Of a DNA stretch of 64,000 nucleotides, positions 24,965 through 55,003 are shown one piece after another. The DNA lies in IMG/VR virus record IMGVR_UViG_3300032030_002018; one strand, given 5' to 3'. The position numbers and the translations under genes are program-made. Position 1 is the stretch's first letter. Every line of letters begins with the position of its first letter. This DNA comes from a virus (Duplodnaviria; Caudoviricetes). The notes beneath the pieces are model-generated. The model was not told the DNA's origin and ran no database searches. It saw nothing but the letters and a program-made list of their open reading frames with translations.

Positions 24965-25366
24965 ATGATAAGTAGGATTATATCAGAAGAAATAGACAAT
25001 TACGTATATAATATCATCCTTGAGAAGAAAAAGAAATCAAAGAAAAAGAAGGAAGATAAAGATATATGGACGAACGCTTTGAAAGCCGTTGGTGGTAGGA
25101 GAAAGAACTACAACCATAAATTAGATAAAATGACCAACCCGAATATGAACAAGTCTGATGAGGACGCAATCACTAACGTGTTGGATAATGATGCTATCAA
25201 CCTTGCAGCTGTTGCAAGAAGGGTTTATCCTGACCTTACACCAGCCGGCGCCCAATCTAAATTGAGAAAAAAGGTTAAGGGTGAAAAGAGTGATAGTGGT
25301 AGCGTGTATAAGATAAAGAAAAAAGAGGCTAATAAGATAGATAAGATACTTTCAGATTTGTTGTAA
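24965..25366 (+). CDS. Basic protein with xxE-type leader and possible HTH
   Basis: MISRIISEEI...IILE; INLAAVARRVYP...SKLRKKVKG; CTATTTAT upstream. Confidence 0.65.
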   Translation: MISRIISEEIDNYVYNIILEKKKKSKKKKEDKDIWTNALKAVGGRRKNYNHKLDKMTNPNMNKSDEDAITNVLDNDAINLAAVARRVYPDLTPAGAQSKLRKKVKGEKSDSGSVYKIKKKEANKIDKILSDLL

Positions 25367-25367
25367 T

Positions 25368-25634
25368 ATGAGAATAACGGATAGAATGATTAGAAATGCT
25401 GTCAGAAGAACAATAAATGAAGCATCTTTTAACTTTAAAACTTATAATGATGACAAACAACTGTCAGAAGAGGCGATGAAACAGCTTCAGATTGCCCACG
25501 ATGCATTAGGTTCGCTTCAAATGACACTGTTTATGAATCCAAATAGCCAATTGGCTAAAACCATATCAGACGGAATCAAGTCAATTAATGATGAGATTAT
25601 AAATATGAGAAATTATTTGACATTTAATAGATAA
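25368..25634 (+). CDS. Leader-family protein
   Basis: MRITDRMIRNAVRRTINE. Confidence 0.7.
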   Translation: MRITDRMIRNAVRRTINEASFNFKTYNDDKQLSEEAMKQLQIAHDALGSLQMTLFMNPNSQLAKTISDGIKSINDEIINMRNYLTFNR

Positions 25635-25635
25635 T

Positions 25636-25956
25636 ATGAAAAGACGAGTTAGATTAACTGAATCAGACTTACGAAGAATAGTAAACGAGTCTGTAAGAAG
25701 AGTTTTAAGAGAAATGGATGGCGATTCAGAAACAAGAGCGTCAATAGAGGCAGCAAGAAATGCCGCTATTGCCGCTGCGATGCCTTGTATTTGCCCTTAT
25801 CCAGATAATTACGATCCAGACAGATATAAAAATACGACTACTTCACGACACTTAAGTCCAGAAGAAGAGGATGAATATATTAAACGAAGTCAGAGGCGTG
25901 TAATAAACGCTGCAAGAAAAGCTGCAATAAATGCAGCAAAAGGCTATGATATCTAA
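25636..25956 (+). CDS. Leader-family protein
   Basis: MKRRVRLTESDLRRIVNESVRRVLRE; internal repeat IEAARNAAIAAA / INAARKAAINAA. Confidence 0.75.
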   Translation: MKRRVRLTESDLRRIVNESVRRVLREMDGDSETRASIEAARNAAIAAAMPCICPYPDNYDPDRYKNTTTSRHLSPEEEDEYIKRSQRRVINAARKAAINAAKGYDI

Positions 25957-25964
25957 CATTTTAT

Positions 25965-26000
25965 AAAAATAGGAAACCATATTTCAGGTTTCCTATTTTT
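25965..26000. terminator. Bidirectional terminator
   Basis: AAAAATAGGAAACC...GGTTTCCTATTTTT. Confidence 0.8.
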
Positions 26001-26008
26001 GTTTTTTT

Positions 26009-27256
26009 TCACCCAAAAATTGCAGAACGAATTGGCTGATATTGTGGCAATTGTTTCATAAATGCATCAACAGTGTCTCTTTTACCTGTATATTTTCCAA
26101 CGTCTTCTGACAGTTTACAGGTATCGTTATAGAAATTCCAATCAGGTGATTCCTTTATTGCAACAAGTTTTATTACAACATTCATTGGTTTCACATCGTC
26201 AGCAATTCCACTCCAATCATTTGTGAAATGTGTTCCAATACCAAAACTTGGTTTGCATAATTTACAAGCTTCGTTATGTATTTCAATTGCGGTATCAGTG
26301 TCCAATGCGTTTGAGAAAATGACTTGTTTTGTCTTTGGGTCTATTCCGTAATCATTATATAGTTTGACGATTTTATTCAATTGCTCTATATTGTCACCGC
26401 TGTCAATCCTCAATCCCTTGAATTGGTTTGCATAAGCTTCTGTTATATTCAATTTGAATATGTCAAAACCATAACTATCATATAGATATATGCCTAATGC
26501 GCCATTATAAGCCTTGTCCCAGGCATCCATTGCCATTTTGTTCGCGTTGATTGGACCGCCATTCATACCTGCAATTCCACATACGAATTCGTGCGCCATT
26601 GTGCCAATTGGCGTTAGGTTGTATTTCATTGCAAGATAAGGATTACTTGTTCCAACGAATTTCCCGCATAGGCAATCGTATTTCTTTGAGCAGTCAACAA
26701 AAGCCTTTACGGCTACGTCTTGTGTTTGGAATGAACTTCTTCTTCTTGTTCCGAAATCAGAGAAGGTACAAAAATTGTTGAGTAATTTCTCTGCCTTTTT
26801 ATATGACTTCTCATAATATTCGTGGTAATCAAACTTAATGTCTTGTTCTGTCATTATATAATATAATTCAGAAACAATAGCCAATATCTTGACCTCCAAC
26901 AATATCGTATTCCACCAAGGCCCTTCAATGGTAATGTCTAGTGTGCCATCTTCGTTTTGGCTTGCTGAAGCATATTCTGAATGGTATCTAAATCCTCTTA
27001 AGAAGGTATAGAACCATTCAGGAAGATAATAGCATTTAAGTTTCAAGAAAGAAATTTCTTCTTCTGTAATCCTCAAATCCTCCAACATCTTTATTTGTTT
27101 GTTAACCTCTTCTGCGAATCCTTTTGGATATACTGTCTTATTTCTGTCAACAAACTTATAAATAACCCAAGCTTTAGGAAAATTAACAAGTACAGCCAAA
27201 CACATTGTCAACTTATACAAGTCGTCGTCTAAGAAATGATTTATAATTCTTTTCAT
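26009..27256 (-). CDS. pncB: Nicotinate phosphoribosyltransferase
   Basis: DDDLYKLTM, DFGTRRR, GTSN, GTMAHE, RIDSGD, FGIGT, KLSEDVGK. Confidence 0.95.
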   Translation of the reverse strand: MKRIINHFLDDDLYKLTMCLAVLVNFPKAWVIYKFVDRNKTVYPKGFAEEVNKQIKMLEDLRITEEEISFLKLKCYYLPEWFYTFLRGFRYHSEYASASQNEDGTLDITIEGPWWNTILLEVKILAIVSELYYIMTEQDIKFDYHEYYEKSYKKAEKLLNNFCTFSDFGTRRRSSFQTQDVAVKAFVDCSKKYDCLCGKFVGTSNPYLAMKYNLTPIGTMAHEFVCGIAGMNGGPINANKMAMDAWDKAYNGALGIYLYDSYGFDIFKLNITEAYANQFKGLRIDSGDNIEQLNKIVKLYNDYGIDPKTKQVIFSNALDTDTAIEIHNEACKLCKPSFGIGTHFTNDWSGIADDVKPMNVVIKLVAIKESPDWNFYNDTCKLSEDVGKYTGKRDTVDAFMKQLPQYQPIRSAIFG

Positions 27257-27822
27257 ATTACAATAACATTTTCTGTGTTTCCAATATATTCTGTAAATCC
27301 ACTTTCAGTTCCATCCGGTATTGCAGGACAAAAATCCTTTATAACATTGAATTTAACGCCTTCAAGAACATTCACGCCGTCTTTCACCGTGTCAGCAACG
27401 CAATAATTATAGGCAATACCAACAACATCAATCTCTTGAATATTGTTCGACAGTACTAAATCTTTAAATTTTGTGCAAGACTCCTCGTTCTTGAAAATTG
27501 AATATTCCTCCTTATTAGGATTAGTTCCTTTTGTGAGGATTATTGCGTTATTACCTTTAATAGCATTCAATAATGGTTCATATATTGCTGACCCTTTAGA
27601 ATATTGAAGACAATGTTCCGGCCATACGCCTAAATTATTAAAAAAAGAGCAGTGATTCACTGGATGAAAATCAACAGTACATACAACAAAATCATACTTG
27701 TCTTTGTTCCTATTAATATAGTCAACAAGATTATCCATTGTTTTTGTTGAACCTTTAACACCCAACTTACCGCCATCCATAAAATCGTATTGGCAATCAA
27801 TACAAAGAAGCATTTTTTTCAT
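27253..27822 (-). CDS. pncA: Nicotinamidase
   Basis: IDCQYDF, DFHP.NH.SF, WPEHC, KG...YS.F, GIAYNYCV. Confidence 0.93.
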   Translation of the reverse strand: MKKMLLCIDCQYDFMDGGKLGVKGSTKTMDNLVDYINRNKDKYDFVVCTVDFHPVNHCSFFNNLGVWPEHCLQYSKGSAIYEPLLNAIKGNNAIILTKGTNPNKEEYSIFKNEESCTKFKDLVLSNNIQEIDVVGIAYNYCVADTVKDGVNVLEGVKFNVIKDFCPAIPDGTESGFTEYIGNTENVIVI

Positions 27823-28787
27823 ATTCTCACTTTTTCGTTTTTAAGTTTCCTTAATATTTCATTTTTCATTTGCCTAACCCTTTCTGTTGTAAGGTTTAGT
27901 TTCTCTGCTATTTCCTGTAGTTTATATTCTCTGTCAACCCCAATTCCGAACGACATTGATATAATTTCCCTTTCTCTTGGTTTTAATTTATTCATCATTA
28001 ACCCTACAATTCTTTGGTTAGCCTGTTGTTCTGCTTCTTCCTCATAAGAGTTAAATGATGCCGTATGTGAGTTATAGTTTCTACTCTCTCCGCTTGTTCT
28101 GTTCTCATCGTCATCAGAAGACGACATAGCATCAATTGAAGATACTTGCATATTGATTACGTCAATGTTCTTTACCTCAATACCCATCTTTTCATACAGA
28201 TATTCCTTGATTTCCTCTGTTGAAGGATTTCTGTGATACTCTTGCACAAACATATCTGTAGCCTTTGCGAGAGTGCTATATGTCTTTGTGATGTTACTCT
28301 TTCGTATAATTCCGTCAGTCTTTGCAAGATATAAATTAAGGTTTCTCCTAATATAATGAACTGCAAATGTAATGAACGAATTGGTATATTCCAGTGGATT
28401 GAAATTATCAATAGCCTCAAACAATGCCAGATTTCCCTCATCAATCAGGTCTTCGATATTGCTTTCATTACCCATTGCCCTTGCTGCTGAAATAACAAAC
28501 CTTTGGTTAGAAAGGACAATATTATTTCTAATTGACTCCAATTCGTTGATGTCAATTCCGTACTTTTGCTTTCCAATCCTCTTAACTTCTTCATTGGTTG
28601 GTTGGAATTTGTGTTCGTTGAAATAGGATGAACGTATCTTATCATACTTTTTCTTGATTTGATACATTCTCTCAAGCATACTCTTCTCTTCCTCCTTTGA
28701 GAGCATCTTGATAGTTTTAACATCACGAAAATAAGAGATGATAGTCTCGTTGTAAGCACAAACTTTTTTCTGTAAATTAATGACCAT
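27819..28787 (-). CDS. Sigma70-family RNA polymerase sigma factor (regions 1.2-4)
   Basis: SYFRDV..LSKEEE, SNQRFVISAAR, DLIDEGN, FITFAVHYIRR, LQEIAEKLNLTTERVRQ. Start moved to MVINLQ (28787). Confidence 0.92.
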   Translation of the reverse strand: MVINLQKKVCAYNETIISYFRDVKTIKMLSKEEEKSMLERMYQIKKKYDKIRSSYFNEHKFQPTNEEVKRIGKQKYGIDINELESIRNNIVLSNQRFVISAARAMGNESNIEDLIDEGNLALFEAIDNFNPLEYTNSFITFAVHYIRRNLNLYLAKTDGIIRKSNITKTYSTLAKATDMFVQEYHRNPSTEEIKEYLYEKMGIEVKNIDVINMQVSSIDAMSSSDDDENRTSGESRNYNSHTASFNSYEEEAEQQANQRIVGLMMNKLKPREREIISMSFGIGVDREYKLQEIAEKLNLTTERVRQMKNEILRKLKNEKVRI

Positions 28788-29301
28788 TCTTTTTAGGTTT
28801 AAGTATAACAATCGTTCTGTTTCCCTCATCCTTCGGCATAGACTCAGGTACAGAAACATCTTCAAGCATAGTTATGAATTCAAGGATAGATTTCTTATTC
28901 TCTTCCCTTCTTGACAATTCCCTTCCTTTCATAGTAAGAACCACCTTAACTTTCTTGTTCTCCTCAATGAACTTCCTTGCGTGGTTAGACTTTGTTTTCA
29001 AGTCATTACTTGCTATATTGACACTTAATTGTATCTCCTTTATCTGATTGGAAGGGTTTGGTTTCTTTTTTTCGTTTTTCTTTTGATTATATAGGAATTT
29101 GTCAAACTGACATATCCTTATTATAGGCATATCATTATTACGACCAATCTCCACCAAGTCCATTTCCATAGACTCTGCAATCTTTTTAGCCTCATATAAT
29201 GACACTACCTTGCTTTCAATTCCTTCTCCCACAATTCTGACATCTCCCTTGAATCTGATGTCATCATTGACTCTGTATTTTTTGTCTGCCAATTTATCCA
29301 A
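28777..29301 (-). CDS. infC: Translation initiation factor IF-3
   Basis: RVNDDI..VRIVG, DLVEI, KFLY.QKK, KEIQLS.NI...DL.TK, KVKV...KGRE. Confidence 0.93.
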   Translation of the reverse strand: MDKLADKKYRVNDDIRFKGDVRIVGEGIESKVVSLYEAKKIAESMEMDLVEIGRNNDMPIIRICQFDKFLYNQKKNEKKKPNPSNQIKEIQLSVNIASNDLKTKSNHARKFIEENKKVKVVLTMKGRELSRREENKKSILEFITMLEDVSVPESMPKDEGNRTIVILKPKKNGH

Positions 29302-29362
29302 TGTTTTTACAGTTGCAAATGTAAGTTATTTATTTGATATAACCAAATATATTAACATATTT

Positions 29363-29728: not shown

Positions 29729-30332
29729 ATCCAGTATGTCCGTTTATTTCTTTTATTTTCTTTGCTCTTTCTTTTCTCTTCCTTACCATTTCACGATATA
29801 AACCGTAATCCTTCTTCTTTGTTTCCATTTCCAATCTTAATTTTTTTATTTCTCTCTCCGCAAGAGACAACGGTTCATAATCGTATAAAGTTATATCTAT
29901 ATCATTGCAAGTGTTGTTGAATATTTCTATAATCCTTTCCTTGTCTCCATTACCGTCAAACCTTGTTGCTCCAAGCAATGTTGAGCCAACTTTCTTTCCT
30001 TTATATATCACATTAACAAGTTTCAAACATTTCTCCAAAGCCTCGTAAGACAGATAGTCCTTCTCTACGTGCGGTCTGAACCTGTTGCCCTTGGTTATGA
30101 AACATATGATAAATGTAGGTTGTTCCTCCTTCTTACACTCCAATATCGTTCCCAATTTATTGATATCGCCATACCTACTGTTCAAGTTAGCCTCAAATAC
30201 ATAAGGATACATTGCCATAACCTTTCTTTGGAAACCCTCGCTCATAATAGCGTAAAGATTAGTACCGACTAGGATTACATCATATTTATCCAACTCATCA
30301 ATCAATTTGTCAGATTTAATTATATTAACCAT
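29721..30332 (-). CDS. Macrodomain protein (Poa1p/TARG1/DarG-like)
   Basis: DVILVGTN...[14 protein letters not shown]...KLGTI...YEALEKCL...[16 protein letters not shown]...ITLYDY. Confidence 0.7.
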
Positions 30333-31395
30333 TAACCTTAAATGATTCAGATTCTTTTAATTTATTTATCATTTCAAGTTCTTCATCAGTCAATTTCTTC
30401 GGCATCTTAGACTTTACAACACCAATCATCGACCCAACAATATTCTGACCATATGTTGGAAGACCTTTTCCCCTATACCTTATCTGATACCCATCCTCTG
30501 TACCACTTGGTATAACTGCTTCCATCTTATTTCCGTCAAGGTCATACACATCAACCTTACAACCAGTTATTGCATCAAGTACAGGTATCTCAATAAGGAA
30601 ATACAAATCACTTCCATTCCGCTCAAATTTGTCGTGACTCAATACTTCTATCTCAACAATCAAATCACCATTCACACCATCAGGTCCTGCATAGTTACCC
30701 TTTCCACTTACAACAAACTGCATACCGGTATATAATCCCTTTGGAACATCTATATCGCACTCTTGCTTACCTTCGACCATTCCGACGCCGTGACAATCAG
30801 GACAAGGATTGGTAACAAACTTTCCGCTTCCATTACAATAAGGACACTCTTCAATCCTCTGCATCGTCATCATACCATTCCTCTGTGTCTTGACAATCTT
30901 TCCGGTACCGTGACAATGCTGACAAACACGTTCCTCACTTCTGCTAGTTTTTCCTGTTCCATTACAAGTAGCACAAGGCACAATACACTTATACCTTATC
31001 TTCTTTTTTAGACCGTTCTTTACATCCTCAATCGTAATTCCAAGTTTCACCTTAACATCAGAACCTCTTTTCTGATGTTCTCTCTCACTGAACATATCCT
31101 CAAATGGGTTGAATCCAAATCCACCCATTCCTCCGTGGAAATGATTCATAAAATCATTTAAATCAAAGTCAAAAGAACCATTGAAAGCCGGATTGTCATA
31201 TTGCTTGCGCTTTTCTTCATCAGAAAGAACACTGTAAGCTTCATTGACTTCCTTGAATTTCTCCTCTGCTTCTTTATCTCCTTGATTTTTGTCAGGGTGA
31301 TACTTTATTGCAAGTTTCTTATAAGCTTTCTTTATTTCTTCCTGACTTGCATTTTTATTAACGCCTAATATACTATAATAATCTTTCTTCTCCAT
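30325..31395 (-). CDS. dnaJ: Chaperone DnaJ
   Basis: J domain with HPD, G/F region, four CxxCxGxG motifs. Start MEKKDYY (31395). Confidence 0.97.
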
Positions 31396-31403
31396 AGTTA
31401 AAA

Positions 31404-31433
31404 TGGTTGGGGAATATTGTTTTCCCCCAACCA
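31404..31433 (-). other. Intergenic hairpin between dnaK and dnaJ
   Basis: TGGTTGGGG...CCCCAACCA. Confidence 0.6.
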
Positions 31434-31444
31434 ATTATTTAATG

Positions 31445-33283
31445 TTAAACTGTTTCAACGTCTTCCGCTCCACCACTATTTGAAGTGTTATAAGCCTTGG
31501 CAGATATCTCATTCCAAACAGATAAATTCTCCTTTTCAAGTTCATCTATCTTTTCAATGTCTTGATTCTTAACGGCTTCCTTTATCTTTTCATTTATTTC
31601 AGATACCTTTTTCTTGTCTTCATCAGTGAGTTTATCCTTCATATCTTCCATAAGGTTCTCATTATTGAATACCATACTATCAGCCTTGTTAAGTTTATCA
31701 GCCTTCTCTTTCTCCTTGGCATCATTATCAGCATTCTCTTCTGCCTCTCGTTTCATCCTTTCAATCTCTTCCTTACTCAATCCTGATGAAGCCTCAATCC
31801 TTATTGACTGTTCCTTACCTGTTGCTGAATCCTTTGCACTTACATTTAGAATGCCATTTGCGTCAATATCGAATGTAACCTCAATCTTTGGTACGCCACG
31901 TCTTGCTGGCATAATACCAGTCAATGCAAACATTCCAACAGACTTATTTTGTGAAGCCATAGGTCTCTCACCCTGCAAAATATGTATTGTTACCTCCACC
32001 TGATTGTCTTGGGCAGTAGAGAAAGTCTCCGTCTTCTTACAAGGTATTGTCGTATTGGCATCAATAAGTCTTGTCATAACACCACCCAAAGTCTCAATTC
32101 CTAAAGACAAAGGAGTTACATCAAGCAACACTATATCCCCAACATTTTCATCCTTGTTCAATATTGCACCTTGAATTGCAGCACCCAATGCAACAGCTTC
32201 GTCTGGATTAACACCCTTTGAAGGCTCTTTGTCAAATACTGTCTTAGCCGCTTCTATAACCTTTGGAATCCTTGTCGAACCACCAACAAGAATTATCTCA
32301 TCAATATCCTTCTTATCAAGTTTTGATAATGACAAAGCATCTTCGCATAACTTAACCAACTTATTATATAGGTGAGAAGTCAACTGCTCAAACTTTGCTC
32401 TTGTCAAAGTAAGGTTCAAATGTCTTGGAACATCTCCTACAGGACATAGATAAGGAAGACTTATGTCTGTTGACAGTGTTGACGACAACTCAATCTTTGC
32501 TTTTTCAGCCGCTTCCCTTATCCTCTGCATTGCCATCGCGTCAGAACTTATATCAACACCATTCTCATTCTTGAATTCATCAACCATCCAATTAACAATG
32601 CACTGGTCAAAATCATCACCACCAAGATGAGAATCTCCATTCGTTGAAATAACTTCAAACACACCACTTCCAAAATTCAATATTGATACATCACTTGTAC
32701 CACCACCGATGTCGTACACCACGACATTCATATCCTTATCTGACTTGTCAATTCCATATGCAAGTGCGGCTGCTGTTGGTTCATTGACAATCCTCAACAC
32801 ATTCAATCCGGCAATTTCACCAGCTTCCTTTGTTGCTTGCCTCTGTGAATCAGAGAAATATGCAGGTACAGTAATAACAGCATCCTTTACTTCTTCTCCA
32901 AGATAATCCTCTGCTGTTTTCTTCATCTTTTGAAGAATCATTGCACTAATCTCCTGAGGTGTGTAAGTTCTGTCACCAATTGACACACGAGGATACCCGC
33001 TCTCATTGATAACCTTGAAGGTTACTCTTTCAGCTTCATCCTTTACTTGTTCAAACGTTTCACCCATAAACCTCTTTATAGAATAAACTGTGTTTACAGG
33101 ATTCATTACAGCTTGTCTCTTACCAGACTCACCAACTTTTCTTTCACCTTCGCTAGTGAAACCAACGATTGAAGGGGTTGTTCTCCTTCCCTCACTGTTA
33201 ACAATGACCACAGGCTCACCACCCTCATATACAGATACACAAGAGTTGGTTGTACCAAGGTCAATACCAATTACTTTTTTCAT
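31445..33283 (-). CDS. dnaK: Chaperone DnaK (Hsp70)
   Basis: [42 protein letters not shown]. Confidence 0.99.
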
Positions 33284-33341
33284 TTTAACAATCTCCTTAT
33301 TTTATAAAATAATATTTTTTTTATTTACTACATTTAATACA

Positions 33342-33357
33342 ACAAAAACCGTGCCAA
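33342..33357 (-). promoter_or_regulatory. Sigma54 (-24/-12)-like element upstream of dnaK
   Basis: Minus strand TTGGCACGGTTTTTGT versus consensus YTGGCACGNNNNTTGC, about 60 bp upstream of the ATG. Confidence 0.55.
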
Positions 33358-33377
33358 AGTAGCAAAAAAATACGATT

Positions 33378-36916: not shown

Positions 36917-36945
36917 TTTGGTTATATTTATATTAAAAAAAAGTT

Positions 36946-37215
36946 ATGATATATCAATTAAATGAAAATAAGTTAAGAAAAGTAATTAACAGTTCAATTA
37001 AACAGGTTTTAAATGAAAGCATTAACCCAGATTTATTGAAATCAATAGAAAACATTATGATTTGTAGTCAAGATGCTTATAAATTGGCGCAAAAAGACAA
37101 TATTGATGTATGGAAAGGACAGATTGCACGTCTACTTAAAGACATCAGGTTTTATCTTGATAAAATTGACTCTAAATTTTCTGGCATATCACAATCGATT
37201 GAAAGTGAATATTAA
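36946..37215 (+). CDS. Leader-family protein
   Basis: MIYQLNENKLRKVINSSIKQVLNE; ATATTTAT at 36924-36931. Confidence 0.7.
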   Translation: MIYQLNENKLRKVINSSIKQVLNESINPDLLKSIENIMICSQDAYKLAQKDNIDVWKGQIARLLKDIRFYLDKIDSKFSGISQSIESEY

Positions 37216-37273: not shown

Positions 37274-38131
37274 TTAGTAGTTTGTTATCAGTACCTCGTC
37301 ACTTTTAGACACTTTGTCTTTAGTGTGATAATTGCAATTGCTATATGTATAATCAAGGTGATTCACGTTGTATTTTTCAGACCATTCAATCAATATATCA
37401 TTAGCCTTTCCTTTGCTTTCCAATACATTGGATAATGCGAATTTTATATGATTGTCATTTAATCTATCTAGAATTGACAGTAATGACTTCTCCTCATTCT
37501 CATTCCAACCGTCCCTTTCATTATAAGACGCACAGGTAATTAAATACGGAGGGTCACAATATATAAAATCATTGTATGACAGTTTGTCTATTTTTATTTC
37601 CTTGAAATCATAGTTTGTAAATATGATATTCTTTTCCGTAATGGCTTTATGGAAGTTTATCAAGTTTCCTTTCATCCTGTCAGTAAACATACTCCTGTCC
37701 TTTCCAAACGGCATATTATATTCACCTTTTGAATTAAACCTAATCTGATTGTTGAATGAATAACATATCAATACATATAATAAGATACTCTTAAATTTAT
37801 CATTGTTATGTGTGGCGTTATAATCATTCCTTAATTTCAAGAAACCTTCACTGTTGGTTTTTGACAAATCATATTTATTTATAACATCATTTATATCACT
37901 TATTAAATCATCTACATTCTCAAATCCTTGAAACATTTTATATATATTAATGACTTCACTGGAAAAATCATTTGCTATGATTCTATCAGCGTCAACATTG
38001 ACAGCGACATTGCCGCCACCTGTAAATAAATCAACAAATGTTCCAATATCTTTCGGAAACAACGGTAGTATTTGACTCAATAACTTGAATTTACCACCTG
38101 TATAATTCATTGGAGATTTAACAAAATCCAT
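37274..38131 (-). CDS. D12-class (Dam-family) DNA adenine methyltransferase
   Basis: NYTGGK, DLFTGGG, RFNSKG.YN.PFG, DPPY, EVLITNY. Confidence 0.93.
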   Translation of the reverse strand: MDFVKSPMNYTGGKFKLLSQILPLFPKDIGTFVDLFTGGGNVAVNVDADRIIANDFSSEVINIYKMFQGFENVDDLISDINDVINKYDLSKTNSEGFLKLRNDYNATHNNDKFKSILLYVLICYSFNNQIRFNSKGEYNMPFGKDRSMFTDRMKGNLINFHKAITEKNIIFTNYDFKEIKIDKLSYNDFIYCDPPYLITCASYNERDGWNENEEKSLLSILDRLNDNHIKFALSNVLESKGKANDILIEWSEKYNVNHLDYTYSNCNYHTKDKVSKSDEVLITNY

Positions 38132-38956: not shown

Positions 38957-39751
38957 TTATTCACTTGGTTCAGAACATATTGTAAGTTCTTCAATCCTAT
39001 CCCTGGACATTTTGCAATATTCCTCACTTATGTCTATGCCTATATAATTGCGTTTCATATCAATACAAACAAGTGCCGTTGTACCGCTTCCAATAAACGG
39101 GTCTAATACTATGTCACCTTTATTTGTCCAAGTCTTTATGTGGTCTAATACAACATCATATGGATAGACAGCAGGATGACCGCTCTTGTTTTGAGCAACA
39201 GCGAAATCCCATACATTACCTTTTACTTTCTTCTCACTGACATTATAGTAAACCTTTCTCCTACCACTCTCGCCTCCAATCATCTTGGCTGTTGACTTGT
39301 ACAATTTTCCTGCATTCTTGCAATCAACCATAATTGGATTGAATGTCTTCGGTTTTCCCTTGCTGAATACCATCATATAGTCAAATGTATCAGTGTATCT
39401 GGGTTGTGCGACAACAGGACAAGGATTCGTCTTGTTCCAAATCATAACATCATTTACATTAAAACCAATTTCATTGAAATACAAAGCCTGCTTAAAACTG
39501 GTCAATGTCTTACTGCCTTTCATTGTTCTGTCATTTACAATCCATACAACAACACCACCTGGTTTTATTACCCTATATAATTCATCAGCCACTCCTTTGA
39601 ACACATCGAAATTCCAAGGATTATCAGGATTATTATAAGTCCTGAGATTATCATATGGCGGACTTGTGATGACCATATCAACACTTTCATCGTCAATATC
39701 CTTCATCACAAGCCTCGCATCACCACAGTATATGTTATTCAATTCAAGCAT
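38957..39751 (-). CDS. Beta-class N4-C/N6-A DNA methyltransferase
   Basis: ITSPPY, HPAVYP, DPFIGSGTT; start MLELNNIY (39751). Confidence 0.93.
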   Translation of the reverse strand: MLELNNIYCGDARLVMKDIDDESVDMVITSPPYDNLRTYNNPDNPWNFDVFKGVADELYRVIKPGGVVVWIVNDRTMKGSKTLTSFKQALYFNEIGFNVNDVMIWNKTNPCPVVAQPRYTDTFDYMMVFSKGKPKTFNPIMVDCKNAGKLYKSTAKMIGGESGRRKVYYNVSEKKVKGNVWDFAVAQNKSGHPAVYPYDVVLDHIKTWTNKGDIVLDPFIGSGTTALVCIDMKRNYIGIDISEEYCKMSRDRIEELTICSEPSE

Positions 39752-47038: not shown

Positions 47039-47046
47039 CCTTTTAA

Positions 47047-47769
47047 ATGAGCGATTATGTAAATGATTTCAATGAATGTGTAAAATATTATTTCGAAGAA
47101 TTGAAGAAATACAAGCCGTTGAAACGAGAGGAAGAGAGAGAATTTATAATAAAGGCTAAAAATGGGGATATTGAAGCAAGGAATAAAGTGATATCATCGA
47201 ACCTGAGGTTTGTTTTTGAAATGGCTAAAAGATACAAGGGTTCAGGAATATCAATAGACGAACTTATTGCAGAAGGCAATCTTGGAATGATGAAAGCAAT
47301 TGATAAGTTCAATGTTGACTATGATATAAAATTCTACTCATATGCCGTATGGTGGATTAAGCAGTATATGAAATCAGCCATAAAGAAGAATATGGAGAAA
47401 AGCAACATTGAAGGCAATGAAGACGAAATTGCTCACAGTATCATAAGCAATACAATTCCTGATGATGAAGACGAAAAAGTCAACAAGTCAGAAACCATAA
47501 TGTCAAATGAAGAAGACGAATACAACGCTGAATTAGAAGCGAACAAAAAGGTTGTTGTTGAGAATTTATTGGTGAAACTTGATGATAGAGAAAGAGTCAT
47601 AATAGAAAATTATTATGGAATAAACGGCAAAAAAGAAAAAAACCTTGAAGAAATAGGAGTTATGTTAGACATAAGCAAAGAGAGGGTAAGACAAATAAAA
47701 ATGTCTTCAATAAAGAAAATGAGATGCGAGATACTCACTATGGACAAGGCTGAATTTATGTTTACCTGA
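47047..47769 (+). CDS. Second sigma70-family factor (short region 3)
   Basis: SNLRFV, ELIAEGNLG, KFYSYAVWWIKQ, LEEIG...SKERVRQI. Confidence 0.93.
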   Translation: MSDYVNDFNECVKYYFEELKKYKPLKREEEREFIIKAKNGDIEARNKVISSNLRFVFEMAKRYKGSGISIDELIAEGNLGMMKAIDKFNVDYDIKFYSYAVWWIKQYMKSAIKKNMEKSNIEGNEDEIAHSIISNTIPDDEDEKVNKSETIMSNEEDEYNAELEANKKVVVENLLVKLDDRERVIIENYYGINGKKEKNLEEIGVMLDISKERVRQIKMSSIKKMRCEILTMDKAEFMFT

Positions 47770-47791
47770 TATTTATATTTAAAATAATCAT

Positions 47792-48157
47792 ATGGAAGAG
47801 AAAAAGAAACCTGGAAGACCAAAAAAGAATGCTGACAAGAAGAAAACAGTAAAAGTGTCAGCGAAAAAGAATGTGGTAGTAAAAGAAACAAATGTTGAAC
47901 CAATATCACTTTCAACAAGCGAAGTTGAAGAAATAAAGAATGAATCCACAGGAAAAACACTTGAAACAAATCCTGTATATAATTCATTAGTATCAAAAGA
48001 AGAAGAAACAGTTAAAGTTGAGAGTGAAGTAAATGAAATATCTGGGGAAAATAAAACTGAGCCAGATAAAAAAGAAGAAATAAATGAAATAAGCCATAAA
48101 AACAAGAGAGTGTATTTCACTTCTGTTTGGAATGGCATTGAAATGGATTCATATTAA
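47792..48157 (+). CDS. Hypothetical K/E-rich protein
   Basis: KKKPGRPKK AT-hook-like start; ATATTTAT upstream. Confidence 0.65.
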   Translation: MEEKKKPGRPKKNADKKKTVKVSAKKNVVVKETNVEPISLSTSEVEEIKNESTGKTLETNPVYNSLVSKEEETVKVESEVNEISGENKTEPDKKEEINEISHKNKRVYFTSVWNGIEMDSY

Positions 48158-48160
48158 AAA

Positions 48161-49459
48161 ATGGCAATCAAGAAGAAAAACAATATCGACTTTACAAGGA
48201 AAATGTTAGAAAGAATAAGGTTAGTCAATGAAGTGAAATTCACTAACAGTCCTTTACTAACAGAGGAAAATGGTTTCGTTATAAAGAAAAACGACACTAA
48301 ATTTGGTAATATACGACAATCACAGGAAGAACAGTTGCGACAAACCATTGGAGACGTTGAACTTGATGATGATGGTGTTGTGTTTTTCCCTGATAACAGC
48401 AATATCGTGCTTAACGGTTATATCAAGGGTATGAATGTTAAGTTCCAATTTAAATATAACGACCAGTCAGGTGATGGATGTTATATAACTGGCGCAGATG
48501 TGCAAATGACAGACTCAAATACAAAGACATTGCAAAAGATTAGGGCGGCTTATGAGAATTGGAAAACATCATTAGACCAAGACGCTACGATTATCAGAGA
48601 CCTTGAAAACGCTGTTAAAAATAATAATAACAACGTTTCAGAATCATCAATTGATAATAGACGAATTATTAAAGAGGAATTTAGGAGGAGACACAGTAAA
48701 GCGCATTCAATTAAAGAAGATGTTATGGCAAGATTTTACAACATCACTACAAACAGAAATAAACCTGTTTTAGTTGAAGGTGTTACTATAGACCGAATAA
48801 TAAAGAAACACGGAGATAAAGGACTTGTAATTGTTAGTGCCAACAGAAGCGATATGGATAGTGATTATAATGACAATAAAACCAGGGAATTAATTCACGA
48901 TATAAAAGATTCAGGATATTCGTATTTACCAGTATATGGCGGCTACCGTGGAACTGATGGAGTTGAAGACGATTACGAACCTTCATTTATAATATTCAAT
49001 TACGACAATAATGGAGATGAAAGAGATTTTGATGAATTACGTGATTTTGCTTTATATTGCTGTGGTAAATTCAACCAAAATTCAGTATTGATTAAAGCAC
49101 CGTCAACGCCTCCAATATATGTTAACAAAGAAGGAAACAAGGTGAATTCTAAAGAAAGCGATGAAGTTATAAAGAATGACCCAAAACAGCAATTTTTTTC
49201 TTCTCTAAAATCAAAAGAAGATGTTGACAACGAAATAAGAGAAAAACTTATGGGAAAGTACAAGACATTTTGCCATATAAGTAATATACCTGTAACTAAA
49301 AGCGGATTTGAGAAATTTTGCAAAGAAAACCTTACTAATATTGATAGTATCGGTAAAAGATGGACTTATGACATACAGTTTGAATGTTACGTCAATCCAA
49401 TGCCTTGCCAATTATCAGAAAGAATGAGGAGAAAAGGCGAGATTATGATTTGGGATTAA
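48161..49459 (+). CDS. Two-domain phage protein (C-terminal domain DUF3293-like)
   Basis: LVNE / LTEE / LVE sites; poly-N linker; IVSANR...L..DI...GY...GGY....E.SF...GKFNQNSVL. Confidence 0.6.
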   Translation: MAIKKKNNIDFTRKMLERIRLVNEVKFTNSPLLTEENGFVIKKNDTKFGNIRQSQEEQLRQTIGDVELDDDGVVFFPDNSNIVLNGYIKGMNVKFQFKYNDQSGDGCYITGADVQMTDSNTKTLQKIRAAYENWKTSLDQDATIIRDLENAVKNNNNNVSESSIDNRRIIKEEFRRRHSKAHSIKEDVMARFYNITTNRNKPVLVEGVTIDRIIKKHGDKGLVIVSANRSDMDSDYNDNKTRELIHDIKDSGYSYLPVYGGYRGTDGVEDDYEPSFIIFNYDNNGDERDFDELRDFALYCCGKFNQNSVLIKAPSTPPIYVNKEGNKVNSKESDEVIKNDPKQQFFSSLKSKEDVDNEIREKLMGKYKTFCHISNIPVTKSGFEKFCKENLTNIDSIGKRWTYDIQFECYVNPMPCQLSERMRRKGEIMIWD

Positions 49460-49728: not shown

Positions 49729-49731
49729 TTC

Positions 49732-49962
49732 TTAAAACATCCTTAATATCTTATCTATAAAATACCTTGTTCTCTCCCTTAAAGACAGTTTCACCTTTTT
49801 TCTTCCACTTAACACATCATCAATGTCGTTACCAAGTTCTCCCCTCAACCTTTCAGCATACATATTCCTGGTTGATTCCAACATCTTCTTGGATATGTTT
49901 CTGTCACTCTTTAAAAGTTCAAGTTCAACTCCAACTGTTGCTCCTTCTTGTAATTCCTCCAT
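49732..49962 (-). CDS. Hypothetical protein
   Basis: 76 aa ORF. Confidence 0.6.
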   Translation of the reverse strand: MEELQEGATVGVELELLKSDRNISKKMLESTRNMYAERLRGELGNDIDDVLSGRKKVKLSLRERTRYFIDKILRMF

Positions 49963-50762
49963 AATGTCTCTATCTTTTCCGTTGAATTGTTTTTAGTGTC
50001 ATATACGTGAGATGTAAATTGATATTTCTCAAATCCGTTGTCTGTCAGTATTTTGTATCTGTCACAATCATATCCGCTTATCAAAATCTTCGCCTTGCTG
50101 TTTATTACAGCATCAAGAAACTCATCCTGTTTGTCACCATCCATATCAACAGCGTATCTTGTACTGGTTCTTGTACTCCAATCATAAGGCGGGTCGCAAT
50201 AGAAAAACACTTTCTCATCATCATATTTCTTTATCAACTCAACAGCATCACGGTTCAATACAATCGTCTTTGACAACCTGTCGTGAAGTTCTGGTAACCT
50301 TTCAACTGCTGAAAGAAAATCTGACACACTCTTTGACATACCCCTTCTAACAGAATATCCATTTATAGAAATACCGCCTATAGAATTACGGCTAGTTCTG
50401 TTCACATAGAAATACATAAAAGCACGGTCAACAATAGATATACTGTCATCATCTTTCCTTAATACATTTATATATTCTTTCCTTAAGTCCTCACTATAAT
50501 AAGTCAATTCACATTTTTTTCTGAATTCATCAAATAACTCACTATCATTCAATACTTTATAAAAAGAATACACATTTTTGTACAAATCATTGTATATTTC
50601 TATTTCTGGTATATATTCCATACCAAGACCTACGCCATAAGAACCCCCGAATGGTTCAATATATGTTGTATAACTACCTTTGTCAGGAAATAGTTCATAT
50701 ATCTTGTTTCTCATCACATTCTTGCCTCCGAAATATTTAATAGGTGCTAATAGTTTTCTCAT
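49911..50762 (-). CDS. D12-class DNA adenine methyltransferase
   Basis: YFGGK, EPFGG, YND, DPPY, SGY, ETLWRNY. Confidence 0.93.
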   Translation of the reverse strand: MRKLLAPIKYFGGKNVMRNKIYELFPDKGSYTTYIEPFGGSYGVGLGMEYIPEIEIYNDLYKNVYSFYKVLNDSELFDEFRKKCELTYYSEDLRKEYINVLRKDDDSISIVDRAFMYFYVNRTSRNSIGGISINGYSVRRGMSKSVSDFLSAVERLPELHDRLSKTIVLNRDAVELIKKYDDEKVFFYCDPPYDWSTRTSTRYAVDMDGDKQDEFLDAVINSKAKILISGYDCDRYKILTDNGFEKYQFTSHVYDTKNNSTEKIETLWRNYKKEQQLELNLNF

Positions 50763-51527: not shown

Positions 51528-51535
51528 AGTGTGAT

Positions 51536-51721
51536 TTAAATAATTAAAACAGTTATAATATATGATATGGCAAGACCAATTGACAATGTTGTCAATAAAC
51601 TTGTATCTACCTTACCCTCACGCAACCTTATCACCTTAATAAAGTTAAACAACCTGTTCAATAAGAACAATATACAGAAAATGAAAACAAAAGTTTTCAA
51701 ACCAATTAAAAACGTAAACAT
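51536..51721 (-). CDS. Small two-TM protein
   Basis: 61 aa, hydrophobic. Confidence 0.6.
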   Translation of the reverse strand: MFTFLIGLKTFVFIFCILFLLNRLFNFIKVIRLREGKVDTSLLTTLSIGLAISYIITVLII

Positions 51722-51790
51722 TTTTATTAAAAAATAGTGTTAAAATGTTTTAAATAAAGAATTAACAAAGGTTCAAAAAAATAATCTAAT

Positions 51791-51820
51791 AAAAAAACCA
51801 CAAATTTCAATTTGTGGTTT
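51791..51820 (-). terminator. Terminator
   Basis: AAAAAAACCACAAATT...AATTTGTGGTTT. Confidence 0.7.
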
Positions 51821-51825
51821 GTTCA

Positions 51826-52218
51826 CTACTGTTGCATTTTGTACTTGTTGTATTCGTCTTCAAGTTCTTTGATACTCATACAGGGTTTTGTAATTATTTC
51901 ACCTGTATCGTAGTTTTTGAGTACCATCACAGAACCGTCTCCATTCGGATAATATATACCGATATTATTGTTTCTCCCTAATTTATCATTGCGATATTTC
52001 AAAAATCTCTCACCTTGCAAGTATTTCTTACCGTGCGGTGAATCAAAAGGTATTTCATTTGATGGTTCATATTTTCCAAAACCTTCTCTACCAATACTAT
52101 AAGCCTTATTCGCAGCTCTGTCAGCCAAGTCTGCCGATATTTCATTCAATACTCTATTTACAGATTTATTCACAATCCTGTGCAAGTCACTCTCTGTTAA
52201 TCTAATTCTCGTTTTCAT
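51826..52218 (-). CDS. Leader-family protein
   Basis: MKTRIRLTESDLHRIVNKSVNRVLNE; ATATTTAT at 52243-52250. Confidence 0.78.
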   Translation of the reverse strand: MKTRIRLTESDLHRIVNKSVNRVLNEISADLADRAANKAYSIGREGFGKYEPSNEIPFDSPHGKKYLQGERFLKYRNDKLGRNNNIGIYYPNGDGSVMVLKNYDTGEIITKPCMSIKELEDEYNKYKMQQ

Positions 52219-52310
52219 ATTATATTTTCTTATTTTTTCTTTATAAATATCACGATATTTTTGCTTTTGTCAAAATATTTGTGTATATTTGTTAAAAAAA
52301 TAATTATGCT

Positions 52311-52919
52311 ATGTGTGTTCTTGGGTATATATACAGTAATAAGAATATAAAGGGTATAAACAAATATATATCGTTAATAAACGACATATCTGATTATAAT
52401 GGCGATAAGCCGTTATTGATAATAGGCTTGGAGAATGCAAGAAAATATTCTGCAAAATTCTCAATATTGAACAAAAGAATAAGTCAAAATGTATTTTGGA
52501 CATTCGATAAAAGCGAGAACCGGGAAGATTATGATAACGACATAAATAAATTTCACAAATTTGTCATATCCAACATATCAAGCCAAATTAAATATTATTA
52601 TGTTAATTTCATTGGTATAAGTTTGAAGAGGATAAAGCATTTCATTAATATGATGAATGACAATACGATGAAATACGCGTATATCAATAACAGTATGGCT
52701 TATATAATGTATGGTAGTGATGTGTTTGGGATATCATTTGATATATTGGATTATTGTGGGATATCAAGGGATAAAATAATAGATAAAATCATAAAGAACA
52801 AAAAGATAAGGATACAGTTTGAAAACAAGGAAATAAGGGATAAAATCAAATATGAATATAATGGAAATAATAAAATAATACCATATTTAATATCGCAAAT
52901 AAATGAATACAGAAATTGA
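52311..52919 (+). CDS. Hypothetical protein
   Basis: 202 aa; TTTG-N20-TATATTTG upstream. Confidence 0.65.
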   Translation: MCVLGYIYSNKNIKGINKYISLINDISDYNGDKPLLIIGLENARKYSAKFSILNKRISQNVFWTFDKSENREDYDNDINKFHKFVISNISSQIKYYYVNFIGISLKRIKHFINMMNDNTMKYAYINNSMAYIMYGSDVFGISFDILDYCGISRDKIIDKIIKNKKIRIQFENKEIRDKIKYEYNGNNKIIPYLISQINEYRN

Positions 52920-53199
52920 AATACTGATAAGAAGGCTATTAAAATCTTTGGTGAAAAATATAAAATCAAAATATCCATACGTTGAAACAAACGAAGAAGA
53001 TATAACGTTTTTTTTAGAAAGGACAAGAAGGAATTATTCAGTTACAATGGATTGTCACGATTTTTTCAATACATTTTTCTGTCCAATAAAAGATATTGAA
53101 TTTATTGAAAGTTTCTCAGGAAATCCATTTTTAAAGATGATTCTAAAATTGTTGGCTGTTGACAACCCAAAAAAAATAGAAGATTTAGGATTGTATTAA
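52903..53199 (+). CDS. Hypothetical protein
   Basis: 98 aa ORF. Confidence 0.6.
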   Translation: MNTEIEILIRRLLKSLVKNIKSKYPYVETNEEDITFFLERTRRNYSVTMDCHDFFNTFFCPIKDIEFIESFSGNPFLKMILKLLAVDNPKKIEDLGLY

Positions 53200-53206
53200 T
53201 ACAACA

Positions 53207-53240
53207 AATGAGGAGCCGATTTGACTCCTCATTCTCTTTT
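53207..53240 (+). terminator. Terminator
   Basis: AATGAGGAG...CTCCTCATT followed by CTCTTTT. Confidence 0.7.
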
Positions 53241-54002
53241 TCACCTTTCAAGGTTAAGATGTTCGGTAAGTTTGTATTTTTCAGAAGGATTGTAATTCAT
53301 AAGTGACTTAACCCTGTCAAGTTGTTCGTTTATTACCTTTGAACCTAATCTCTTCTGTATGTCTGGTTTTTCTAAATCGTGCCATTCAACAAAATACTTT
53401 GTCTTATCAGCATCCTCCATTATAAACCTACACCCTTCGTACTTATACATATCTGGTACCTTGGAAAGCATATGGTTTTCAGACAGGAATTTCAAATGCT
53501 TGAACCTTATTCTGTCAATGTTTCTTGATTCTCCGTACATAGTCTTCTTTCCATAAGACTTCTTGTCATAATGCTGCGATACAAGACCTTGGAATTGCAT
53601 ATCCTTCTTTATCTTATTTGAATCAACAGCGTGCTTCTTGAAATAAGGTGAAATACCGAAATCAGCGTTTCCAAACTCATCGTTTTTGTGGTTTTTCTTT
53701 GCCAATGCAGATGTCCACCCTTCTGCTTGCGCTTGAAGACGCTCAGTGTCTGGGTCATTGTCATAACGTATGTCAGACATACCCTGATTCTCTTCTGGTG
53801 TTACAGGACCAGTTTTCTTGTCGTCACCATCCTTAATTCCTTTGTAAACGGACTTGACTTCTTTCTCAATATCAGAATAAGCCTTGCCGTTTATATCCTT
53901 GTTCTTTTCGTTGCCAACAACTGGTTTGAATTCATTCTTCTCGTTAATGAATCTCCTTAATTCTCCAACCTTGAAAGTTCTTTCCATTGTAATTATTGCC
54001 AT
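53241..54002 (-). CDS. Probable virion-associated protein with xxE sites
   Basis: LRRFINE...YGES...LSEN...VINEQLDRVKSLMNY...LTE. Confidence 0.6.
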   Translation of the reverse strand: MAIITMERTFKVGELRRFINEKNEFKPVVGNEKNKDINGKAYSDIEKEVKSVYKGIKDGDDKKTGPVTPEENQGMSDIRYDNDPDTERLQAQAEGWTSALAKKNHKNDEFGNADFGISPYFKKHAVDSNKIKKDMQFQGLVSQHYDKKSYGKKTMYGESRNIDRIRFKHLKFLSENHMLSKVPDMYKYEGCRFIMEDADKTKYFVEWHDLEKPDIQKRLGSKVINEQLDRVKSLMNYNPSEKYKLTEHLNLER

Positions 54003-54176
54003 TTAATATAGTGGATATTGAGATAAGTACAACCCTCTAAGTAATTGTTCAAACCTCAATTTTGTTATTTTATTCTTGTCGATTTTCTCTTTACCAATTT
54101 CTTCTTTGAGCATATTGTCAACCTCAATTACACTTTTGATGTTCTCATTCTGCTCTTGGTTAGCATAATCTATCAT
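54003..54176 (-). CDS. 57-aa hypothetical protein (not in ORF track)
   Basis: MIDYANQEQNENIKSVIEVDNMLKEEIGKEKIDKNKITKLRFEQLLRGLYLSQYPLY; overlaps the upstream stop and abuts the downstream start. Confidence 0.65.
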   Translation of the reverse strand: MIDYANQEQNENIKSVIEVDNMLKEEIGKEKIDKNKITKLRFEQLLRGLYLSQYPLY

Positions 54177-54457
54177 TTCTTTCTCTTGTTAACCTCATCA
54201 GTTCCTTCCTCATCAGCGTGCTTTGTGGTCATATTCTTCCTTCCCATAGCAGGAGCGTAGAAACCACGTGTAATTGGCTTTCCCTTGCTCATAGGAGCAT
54301 CATAGTAAGGATAACTGCCATCATTACCAAGACCACAGGTATTTGTAGCACCTCCGCCACCCATAGCACCTTCTCCTTCTTCTCTAATTATCCTCCTGAC
54401 ACTTTCCATTACCATACGGTGAATGTCACTCTCTGTTAATTTAATTCTTCTTTTCAT
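54173..54457 (-). CDS. Leader-family protein
   Basis: MKRRIKLTESDIHRMVMESVRRIIREE. Confidence 0.78.
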   Translation of the reverse strand: MKRRIKLTESDIHRMVMESVRRIIREEGEGAMGGGGATNTCGLGNDGSYPYYDAPMSKGKPITRGFYAPAMGRKNMTTKHADEEGTDEVNKRKK

Positions 54458-54801
54458 TTGAAATAATCATATAAACGATGCATCTTATCTTCAAAGTTCT
54501 TTGAGCATACGGTGTATTTAAGATGATGAATTGATTTCTTCTTCTTTGATTCAGCATCATATCTCTCATCGAACCCTTCTTTCTTTATGACAATACCCCT
54601 ATCAAGCATCCTGTTAAGTATGTCATTCCTACTTATGCCCCTTCCTTTAAGATAATCTGTTGTATCAGCATTGATAGGATTTGACAAAAGTTCCCTTAGG
54701 AATTTCTTGACCTCTGTTTGGAACTTGAAATAAGTCATCTCATCCTTGGAAGAAGACAGAACACCAATCTTATCCTCAGATATGTATATTCTCCTACCCA
54801 T
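54454..54801 (-). CDS. Hypothetical protein, short leader variant
   Basis: MGRRIYISEDKI. Confidence 0.65.
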   Translation of the reverse strand: MGRRIYISEDKIGVLSSSKDEMTYFKFQTEVKKFLRELLSNPINADTTDYLKGRGISRNDILNRMLDRGIVIKKEGFDERYDAESKKKKSIHHLKYTVCSKNFEDKMHRLYDYFK

Positions 54802-55003
54802 TCTTCAATGTGCTTGACCACATATTATCTTTCTGCCACAGAATCTTAAACAAATCCTTGATAACATCTGTGGTTATAGCCTTAACAGCCTTTTTGAAAT
54901 CACGTGAAGAATACATACTGTCAATCTCACTTGATACAACAGAACGCACATCAGACTTATTCAACTCCTCCCTAATTATACTACGTATTCTCCTATTATT
55001 CAT
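54794..55003 (-). CDS. Hypothetical protein, leader variant
   Basis: MNNRRIRSIIREE; ATATTTAT at 55025-55032. Confidence 0.65.
   Translation of the reverse strand: MNNRRIRSIIREELNKSDVRSVVSSEIDSMYSSRDFKKAVKAITTDVIKDLFKILWQKDNMWSSTLKNG

Follow-up and report, generated by a model that had tools for sequence, protein, structure and literature searches.

The capsid-targeting sequence (CTS) of bacteriophage T4, reportedly described by Mullaney and Black in 1996, is the closest known counterpart of the peptide considered here. Some proteins are packed in phage heads and injected with the DNA, among them the anti-restriction proteins IPI* of T4 and DarA and DarB of P1. The cargo-loading peptides of encapsulins are likewise short and portable, and bring varied cargo into a shell of the HK97 fold from either terminus of the protein that carries them. 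In T4, the internal proteins have an N-terminal propeptide of 10-20 residues in common with Alt and gp24, which suffices to load them and is taken off by the protease gp21; the T4-related proteases all cut after Glu, and further cut sites inside the propeptides are considered to help in clearing away the fragments (PMC5694885). In phiKZ-like phages a distant relative of gp21 also cuts after Glu, at the motif A/S/G-x-E and at multiple sites within one propeptide; the propeptides are heterogeneous, reach more than 100 residues and include no single portable tag, and these phages are without a recognisable gp22-type scaffold (PMC5694885, PMC10052503). We describe here a 26-residue peptide, hereafter the tag, that opens otherwise unrelated open reading frames (ORFs) in a 64-kb window (the whole stretch of phage DNA analysed, IMG/VR record IMGVR_UViG_3300032030_002018; G+C 30-38%, dense coding). 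We consider it reasonably likely that the tag is a head-targeting propeptide of the T4 type, cut by a prohead protease of the S77 family and used far more widely, and with far less variation, than the T4 sequence.

The same 26-residue peptide opens three ORFs of the window, which we name, like the other ORFs below, by their start coordinates, and 14 of its positions are invariant across the three. The first copy (25636-25713, ending V-L-R-E) begins a 106-aa ORF on the plus strand (25636-25956), the third gene of an operon 24965-25368-25636, whose cargo, that is, the part of the protein beyond the tag, matches only its own orthologue (P0067). The second (52141-52218, ending V-L-N-E) begins a 130-aa ORF on the minus strand (51826-52218) that has an upstream motif ATATTTAT of its own and orthologues that are 50-84% identical. 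The third (54380-54457, ending I-I-R-E) begins a 94-aa ORF, also on the minus strand (54173-54457). A profile built from these three tags (the 3-leader profile), with which the window was scanned in six frames, returns its sources at 57-64 bits (57.6, 64 and 60.1, respectively), and its next two matches are the N-termini of the ORFs at 36946 (8.9 bits) and 25368 (7.3 bits). A broad profile of 242 distinct metagenomic tag copies gives the three canonical tags 44-49 bits (44.4 for the first), 36946 12.9 bits (E 0.012) and 25368 3.7 bits (E 10). The initial annotation had proposed a shared N-terminal leader on all five of these otherwise unrelated ORFs; three of them carry it in strong form and the fourth as a clear variant, and the fifth is doubtful. 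The variant opens an 89-aa ORF on the plus strand (36946-37215) with its own motif 21 nt upstream; it ends in V-L-N-E, profile positions 7-26 fall on 36958-37017, and its protein weakly matches phrog_15464 (function not known) over residues 6-43 (E 0.004). The doubtful case is an 88-aa ORF on the plus strand (25368-25634) with a possible short variant that ends in T-I-N-E.

The consensus of the tag, M-K-K-x-I-R-L-T-E-S-D-L-H-R-I-V-K-E-S-V-N-R-V-L-N-E, begins with a few basic residues and continues as an amphipathic helix, one face of which is formed by the hydrophobic positions 12, 15/16, 20 and 23/24. The similarity had been said to end at an (L/I)xE tripeptide, and it does so both in the window copies and in 241 copies from elsewhere, where position 24 is Leu or Ile in 223, position 26 is Glu in 224, and from position 27 on no residue rises above 15-20%. 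The best-conserved residue of all is E9 (232 of the 241), which follows L7-T8. Thus both conserved acidic residues, E9 and E26, close an L/I-x-E, the one preceded by L7-T8 and the other by L/I24. Among the 15 orthologues of the 130-aa protein the Glu of the terminal N-E is invariant and the Asn is kept in at least 90%, and the final N-E persists even in an orthologue (P0027) in which the rest of the tag has been replaced. An AlphaFold2 model of the 130-aa protein computed with the 15 orthologues (mean pLDDT 88) places a helix at residues 9-24 and a non-helical break at residues 25-28, in front of a confident alpha/beta domain that occupies residues 29-130. This cargo domain has no fold match in the PDB by Foldseek, and the ESM Atlas gave no usable match. 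The tag does not resemble a signal peptide of the Sec, Tat or lipoprotein type, for which we looked for a hydrophobic core of at least 10 residues behind a basic N-region: charges are spread over its whole length, Lys, Arg, Asp or Glu making up 9-11 of the 26 residues in the three window copies, and a hydrophobic run is absent. Nor does it resemble a ribbon-helix-helix (RHH) DNA-binding domain, for which a beta-strand, helix A and a conserved helix B, about 45 residues long, would be expected, since conservation stops after one helix, no RHH family is matched, and the model shows a single helix and then a break.

The tag profile retrieves 17 IMG/VR loci, including two genomes estimated to be complete, G001 (387.5 kb) and G002 (348.7 kb, with terminal repeats). 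The window helicase is 48% identical to those of G002 and G003 and 41% identical to that of G001, so the window and G001-G003 share a broad clade but are not close kin. At E<=1 the tag profile has 12 matches in one of the complete genomes and 19 in the other, several of which are weak. Peptidase_S77 (PF03420), to which the T4 gp21 prohead protease belongs, exceeds its cut-off in four of five contigs, with 43-84 bits in G001-G004; Gp23 is likewise present in four contigs, and G002 encodes Portal_T4 together with Gp23. Judging by these relatives, we infer that the window's own genome encodes a Peptidase_S77 protease as well. The tag genes lie close to these head genes. The best-scoring tag gene of G002 follows immediately after the protease gene, other tag genes are found in the vicinity and in the portal-terminase interval, and a cluster at 44.7-56.5 kb of the same genome carries the tag or a tag variant on eight genes. 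The second gene downstream of the G004 protease is tag-like and comes before the scaffold gene, and G001 has a tag gene at a distance of 1.2 kb on the upstream side of its protease. In all three contigs a tag gene thus adjoins the protease gene or is no more than 2 kb away. T4 has its prohead core genes 67, 68, 21 and 22 in the corresponding neighbourhood. A further peculiarity concerns the protease itself: that of G002 (L026:11809-13632) contains an intein with a LAGLIDADG domain, which brings it to 607 aa as compared with the usual ~235-380, and the G001 protease has 3234 homologues, many of them with precomputed intein matches in Pfam (PF14890, PF14528, PF07591).

Expression of the tag genes can be considered in the light of a short upstream motif, (A/C)TATTTAT. 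The initial annotation placed most of its leader ORFs directly behind this motif or in an operon behind it, and all ten ORFs that it named, including five weaker candidates discussed below, do belong to units headed by the motif. It stands 21-31 nt before the starts at 24965, 36946, 47792, 52218 and 55003: as CTATTTAT at 24943-24950 (plus strand), as ATATTTAT at 36924-36931 (plus strand), at 47769-47776 (plus strand), where it heads the ORFs 47792-48157 and 48161-49459, as ATATTTAT at 52243-52250 (minus strand, 31 nt before the start at 52218), and as ATATTTAT at 55025-55032 (minus strand, 28 nt before the start at 55003). Ten of the 39 copies of TATTTAT in the window lie 21-43 nt upstream of a start on the same strand, as against 1.1 expected from random placement. 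Five of these ten head units without a leader, so the motif is not specific to the leader. In G002, ATATTTAT is found 29-54 nt before the genes for portal, large terminase, capsid, scaffold and protease and before every tag gene examined, and it occurs likewise around the protease in G004 and G001, the distances across the three contigs ranging over 21-54 nt. Since it also precedes head genes, ATATTTAT can be regarded as the general late (structural) promoter of the clade. The idea of a portable promoter-plus-leader cassette consequently falls away: the motif is best taken as a general late promoter, the upstream regions do not align, and no cassette was found at the level of DNA. In contrast, the expectation that the leader genes are expressed late and not early agrees with the motif, because the tag genes have it in common with the portal, terminase, capsid, scaffold and protease genes and are therefore predicted to be late.

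How far the tag is a module in its own right is best judged from the proteins that follow it. The cargo bodies of the three canonical window proteins have no mutual blastp match at E<=1e-3, and 167 tagged proteins, with the tag masked, fall into 93 blastp groups, with 74 singletons. Among 50%-identity representatives of 1.84 billion metagenomic proteins, the 3-leader profile finds 4438 clusters at E<=1e-3 and 189 at E<=1e-10, and in metagenome examples a near-invariant core, I-R-L-T-E-S-D-L-H-R-I-V-K-E-S-V-N-R-V-L-N-E, precedes quite different sequences. The DNA of the tag is only ~70% identical between the three window copies, with synonymous differences (one copy, for example, encodes Ser10 as TCA where the other two have AGT); the conservation of the tag thus acts at the protein level. 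No Pfam family covers the tag in 146 representatives that were scanned, and essentially none was found in their cargo; the three canonical window proteins have no Pfam match above cut-off and no PHROG match. The tag is absent from GenBank phages by tblastn, so that no cultured representative was found there, and the string LTESDL had no match in a text search of the literature.

These observations could also be accommodated without a portable module, by a single gene family in which the N-terminal helix was conserved and the rest diverged past recognition. The cargos are small and hydrophilic (Asp 10%, Asn 8%, Gly 8%, Tyr 6%) and mostly without known domains, and short proteins of this kind quickly lose detectable similarity; in addition, the regions upstream of the tag genes in the window show no alignment beyond the short motif. 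However, the tag is fused to clearly different known domains, an S-adenosylmethionine (S-AdoMet) lyase in the contig L047 and WG_beta_rep in G002, and it stands at both ends of a 667-aa multi-domain protein. In addition, P0027 lacks the tag inside an otherwise tagged orthologous family, and a tagged gene has been inserted into an operon that is conserved with G002. We therefore give common descent of whole proteins a very small chance as the explanation for the tag. It should be added that our estimates for head targeting and its three rivals add up to certainty only loosely, because descent from a single family concerns origin and is compatible with any of the others, head loading included.

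The case for cleavage draws on what the proteases of this family do elsewhere. Residues 63-65 of T4 gp23 are L-T-E, the known maturation cut site of this protein, and the N-termini of T4 gp24 and gp22 read L-R-E and I-A-E. At about residue 60 the capsid proteins of G001, G002 and G004 retain an L-(L/I)-x-E with Ala as the next residue; in the alignment this falls a few residues short of the gp23 site. The tripeptide [LI]xE is enriched in T4 gp22, which is degraded by gp21 (16 occurrences as against 5.7 in shuffled sequences, z 5.2), and in the putative scaffold of G002 (15 as against 6.9 expected, z 3.5); it is not enriched in portal or terminase. We also considered mimicry of the scaffold by the tag, because the N-terminus of the G002 scaffold resembles the end of the tag by eye, and dropped this idea since the tag profile has no match there.

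We suggest the following sequence of events, by analogy with T4. The tagged genes would be transcribed late, from the ATATTTAT promoter that the head genes use, and the tag would make their products assemble with the scaffolding core inside the prohead. A gp21-type serine protease (Peptidase_S77) would then cut after the Glu of L/I-x-E, at E26 and probably also at E9, and the cargo thus freed in the head would be ejected together with the DNA. The original proposal of a capsid-targeting leader that is removed at (L/I)xE by a gp21-like protease fits the indirect tests that we ran and is partly supported by them; targeting, cleavage, packaging and ejection of the tagged proteins are what we infer from that fit. 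The cargo itself is an open, fast-changing set of small hydrophilic proteins. S-AdoMet lyase, at least, is a recurring type of cargo, and it points to counter-defence on entry into the cell.

The likeness to the T4 system has several parts. As with the CTS of IPI-III, Alt and gp24, a short N-terminal peptide ending in L/I-x-Glu is found on otherwise unrelated proteins; Peptidase_S77 and T4-type portal and capsid genes are present in the relatives, and the tagged genes are predicted from the promoter motif to be late; and in the relatives the protease and scaffold genes have a tagged gene next to them or in their midst, in the manner of T4 genes 67, 68, 21 and 22. The differences are equally clear. 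The tag has 26 residues instead of 10-20, no detectable sequence similarity to the CTS, and two candidate sites for cleavage; T4 has a handful of such proteins, as against 12-19 or more profile matches in each genome and cargo clusters by the thousand here; and copies of the tag are also C-terminal and internal. With the propeptides of the phiKZ-like phages (phiKZ gp175, 201phi2-1, SPN3US gp245) the tag has in common that it belongs to giant phages and that many proteins are packed into the head, as is the case there and is predicted here. The fusion of the tag to a S-AdoMet lyase suggests the logic of T4 IPI* and P1 DarA and DarB, with the differences that the cargo activities are not the same, that P1 is without a shared tag, and that injection would here follow from the analogy.

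Several observations weigh against this reading. The scaffold of G004 shows no enrichment of [LI]xE, and [LI]xE is a common tripeptide, which makes it weak evidence when taken alone. The tag profile has no match on scaffold, capsid, portal, terminase or protease. The tag is present in 2-4 copies in 85 of the 162 best matches, with some copies internal and some at the extreme C-terminus. This pattern is not just an artefact of gene calling, since a complete 667-aa ORF of G002 (L041:1762-3765) is tagged both at its N-terminus and 3 residues before its stop codon. A cut after L-x-E would leave a C-terminal copy attached to its protein. Thus, the description of the tag as an N-terminal leader is right for the window copies, but elsewhere it also occurs internally, C-terminally and in 2-4 copies per protein, none of which simple leader removal predicts. 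Either the tag is a docking helix that can be used at both ends and is removed only where it is N-terminal, or the proteins are cut into pieces. The use of either terminus by encapsulin cargo-loading peptides would accommodate the C-terminal copies; encapsulins differ in that they are bacterial organelles and not virions, their peptide is not removed by a protease, and it has no sequence similarity to the tag. The gene that follows the 667-aa ORF in G002 also begins with the tag. Finally, tag genes are also found in a metagenome-assembled genome (MAG) of a rumen Bacteroidales bacterium, RUG12632.

The C-terminal and internal copies lead directly to the possibility that the tag is never removed, and that it is a permanent docking helix on a common partner in the virion, such as a scaffold remnant, the inner capsid wall, the portal or the DNA, with L/I-x-E merely ending an amphipathic helix. 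Leader removal makes no sense for such copies, and the heptad-like hydrophobic stripe (L12, I15/V16, V20, I23/L24) is well suited to helix-helix contact. The late promoter and the proximity to head genes are equally compatible with permanent docking. What it does not predict is that conservation should end on a single invariant Glu after L/I, or that there should be a second L-T-E at positions 7-9; moreover, the model puts the break of the helix exactly at the junction with the cargo, and the protease family that accompanies the tag cuts after Glu. We regard a permanent helix as unlikely, and removal by the protease as more probable.

The bacterial occurrences bear on a different alternative. 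One tag gene of RUG12632 (L045:4500-6560, on CACZHT010000001.1) lies in an island of 35-43% G+C at the end of a chromosomal contig of 52-60% G+C, which carries ribosomal protein genes and rpoA (the rpsM-rpoA-rplQ region). On contig 29 of the same MAG (L047), two adjacent genes have the tag or a short variant of it before a S-AdoMet lyase domain, with PF23780 in one of them at 36 bits, above the cut-off. A prophage remnant, a mobile element or an error of binning may account for these genes, and their occurrence hints at rumen Bacteroidales as hosts. They could also be taken to mean that the tag is unconnected with the capsid and acts during infection within the cell, on late-expressed takeover or counter-defence proteins, as an oligomerisation helix or one that binds nucleic acid or a host factor, for example as a handle for a phage DnaK/DnaJ system. 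The presence of tag genes in a bacterial MAG outside an obvious phage context would agree with such a role, as would the Arg/Lys-rich helix, the Hsp70 and DnaJ that are encoded in the window, and a cargo, S-AdoMet lyase, that is an enzyme working in the cytoplasm. Takeover or counter-defence proteins that are made in the cell would be expected early, however, yet the tag genes share the motif of the head genes, and three related phage contigs have them grouped with the genes for protease, scaffold, capsid and portal. Furthermore, the tag has no DNA-binding or other Pfam match and no second conserved helix of the kind found in ribbon-helix-helix proteins. In our view an intracellular role has a slim chance, smaller than that of the permanent helix.

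A bolder version of head targeting can be formulated. The tag would serve for loading in general, could be repeated, and would function at both protein termini; a large clade of jumbo phages of the rumen and gut would use it to pack dozens of effectors with fast turnover, S-AdoMet lyase included, and to inject them together; multi-copy proteins would be polyproteins that are cut into several cargos; and the products of tag genes in Bacteroidales chromosomes or mobile elements would get into phage heads by the same address, either to sabotage the phage or to hitch-hike with it. We offer this as speculation that we consider doubtful, if slightly less so than an intracellular role.

The five weaker variants that the initial annotation had listed, at 24965, 55003, 54801, 54002 and 48161, are found by neither profile in the window. 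The ORF at 24965 (24965-25366, plus strand, 133 aa) is the first gene of its operon, has the motif 21 nt upstream and matches neither tag profile. Three of the others belong to a five-ORF operon on the minus strand (53241-55003) behind one ATATTTAT motif, which consists of 54794-55003, 54454-54801, 54173-54457, 54003-54176 and 53241-54002, and three members of this operon have N-termini that are partial, degenerate and tag-like. The orthologues of the 54002, 54801 and 55003 proteins in G001 and G002 give weak partial tag matches in the same register (E 0.0015, 0.046 and 0.25, Z=76), and parts of the tag are easier to recognise in their N-termini than in those of the window proteins. These three proteins may carry decayed tags. 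The operon is syntenic with an operon of G002 and partly with one of G001, and at the G002 position of the canonical-tag gene 54173-54457 there is only a 135-nt spacer (L050:2434-2568). The absence of this gene from the syntenic operon is direct evidence of turnover among tagged genes, by gain or loss within a conserved late operon.

The last of the weaker candidates is a 432-aa protein on the plus strand (48161-49459), the product of the second gene behind the motif at 47769. It has a conserved N-terminal domain and a S-AdoMet lyase domain at residues 223-326 (PF23780, 41.4 bits, cut-off 28), and its N-terminus ends in L-V-N-E and does not match the tag profiles. It is nevertheless tied to the tag system by its domain, since PF23780 is fused to a canonical-type tag in L047 (1501-2286). 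Three DNA methyltransferases with Pfam support, two of the D12 type and one N6_N4, are encoded on the minus strand of the window (37274-38131, 38957-39751 and 49911-50762), and together with the S-AdoMet lyase domain at 48161 the methyltransferases amount to a heavy anti-restriction load for one window. A possible fourth methyltransferase (11190-11924, plus strand), judged from its N-terminal sequence alone, is a close paralogue of 38957-39751. A NAD-salvage pair on the minus strand (26009-27822), a nicotinate phosphoribosyltransferase and an isochorismatase/nicotinamidase-like protein, may counter NAD-depleting defences.

The remainder of the window has the content of a large phage. A contig of 334,726 bp is on record for one of its proteins, and for this reason we take the window to be a piece of a jumbo phage; the closest relative in the JGI metagenome set is 74% identical. 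Replication and recombination are represented by a helicase, a primase, a SbcCD-like nuclease and a RuvC-like resolvase. Two factors of the sigma-70 family are encoded at 27819-28859 (minus strand) and 47047-47769 (plus strand), and the ATATTTAT late motif may be recognised by one of them. The window also encodes a full-length Hsp70/DnaK (612 aa, 812 bits), together with a three-domain DnaJ (30325-33283, minus strand). Within the hsp70 gene a 510-bp stretch is 72% identical to records of a 735-kb uncultured phage (LR756501/LR756503), and this stretch is the sole match of the window among GenBank phages. There are also a Tyr-tRNA ligase (21665-22975, minus strand), two OmpA-domain proteins with N-termini that resemble signal peptides (5759-6490 and 19235-20284, both minus strand) and a tail-protein-like ORF of 1699 aa. 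The ORFs 9517-10500 and 11963-13156 (minus strand) are paralogues with a nearly identical N-terminus of ~45 residues, both match phrogs 35892 and 18805, and a ATATTTAT motif is located upstream of the pair at 13645; they may be interchangeable tail-fibre or receptor-binding proteins. A 410-aa peptidase (4127-5359, minus strand) was considered as a prohead protease and rejected: it has no Pfam match, matches phrog_4191, and among PDB entries resembles only M42-type aminopeptidases, and these weakly (E 0.008). A 2235-aa ORF (56137-62844, minus strand), directly upstream of the operon 55003->53241, has no PHROG match and no relative among GenBank phages. A comparison of synteny by way of giant proteins was dropped, since this ORF and the 2330-aa protein near the G001 protease are not similar.

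The principle by which a short peptide addresses proteins to the phage head is known from T4. New features would be how widely and how uniformly the tag is used, its occurrence in several copies and at C-termini, and the group of hosts concerned. If the head-targeting reading is true, a single 26-residue profile would list the packaged, and probably injected, proteins of a large uncultured clade of jumbo phages of rumen and gut Bacteroidales. It would take in thousands of protein clusters that domain libraries do not cover, so that the cargo of giant phages could be read from sequence alone, and it would point to new counter-defence proteins, of which the S-AdoMet lyase would be the first example. 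The tag would, in addition, be a ready-made means of loading foreign proteins into capsids.

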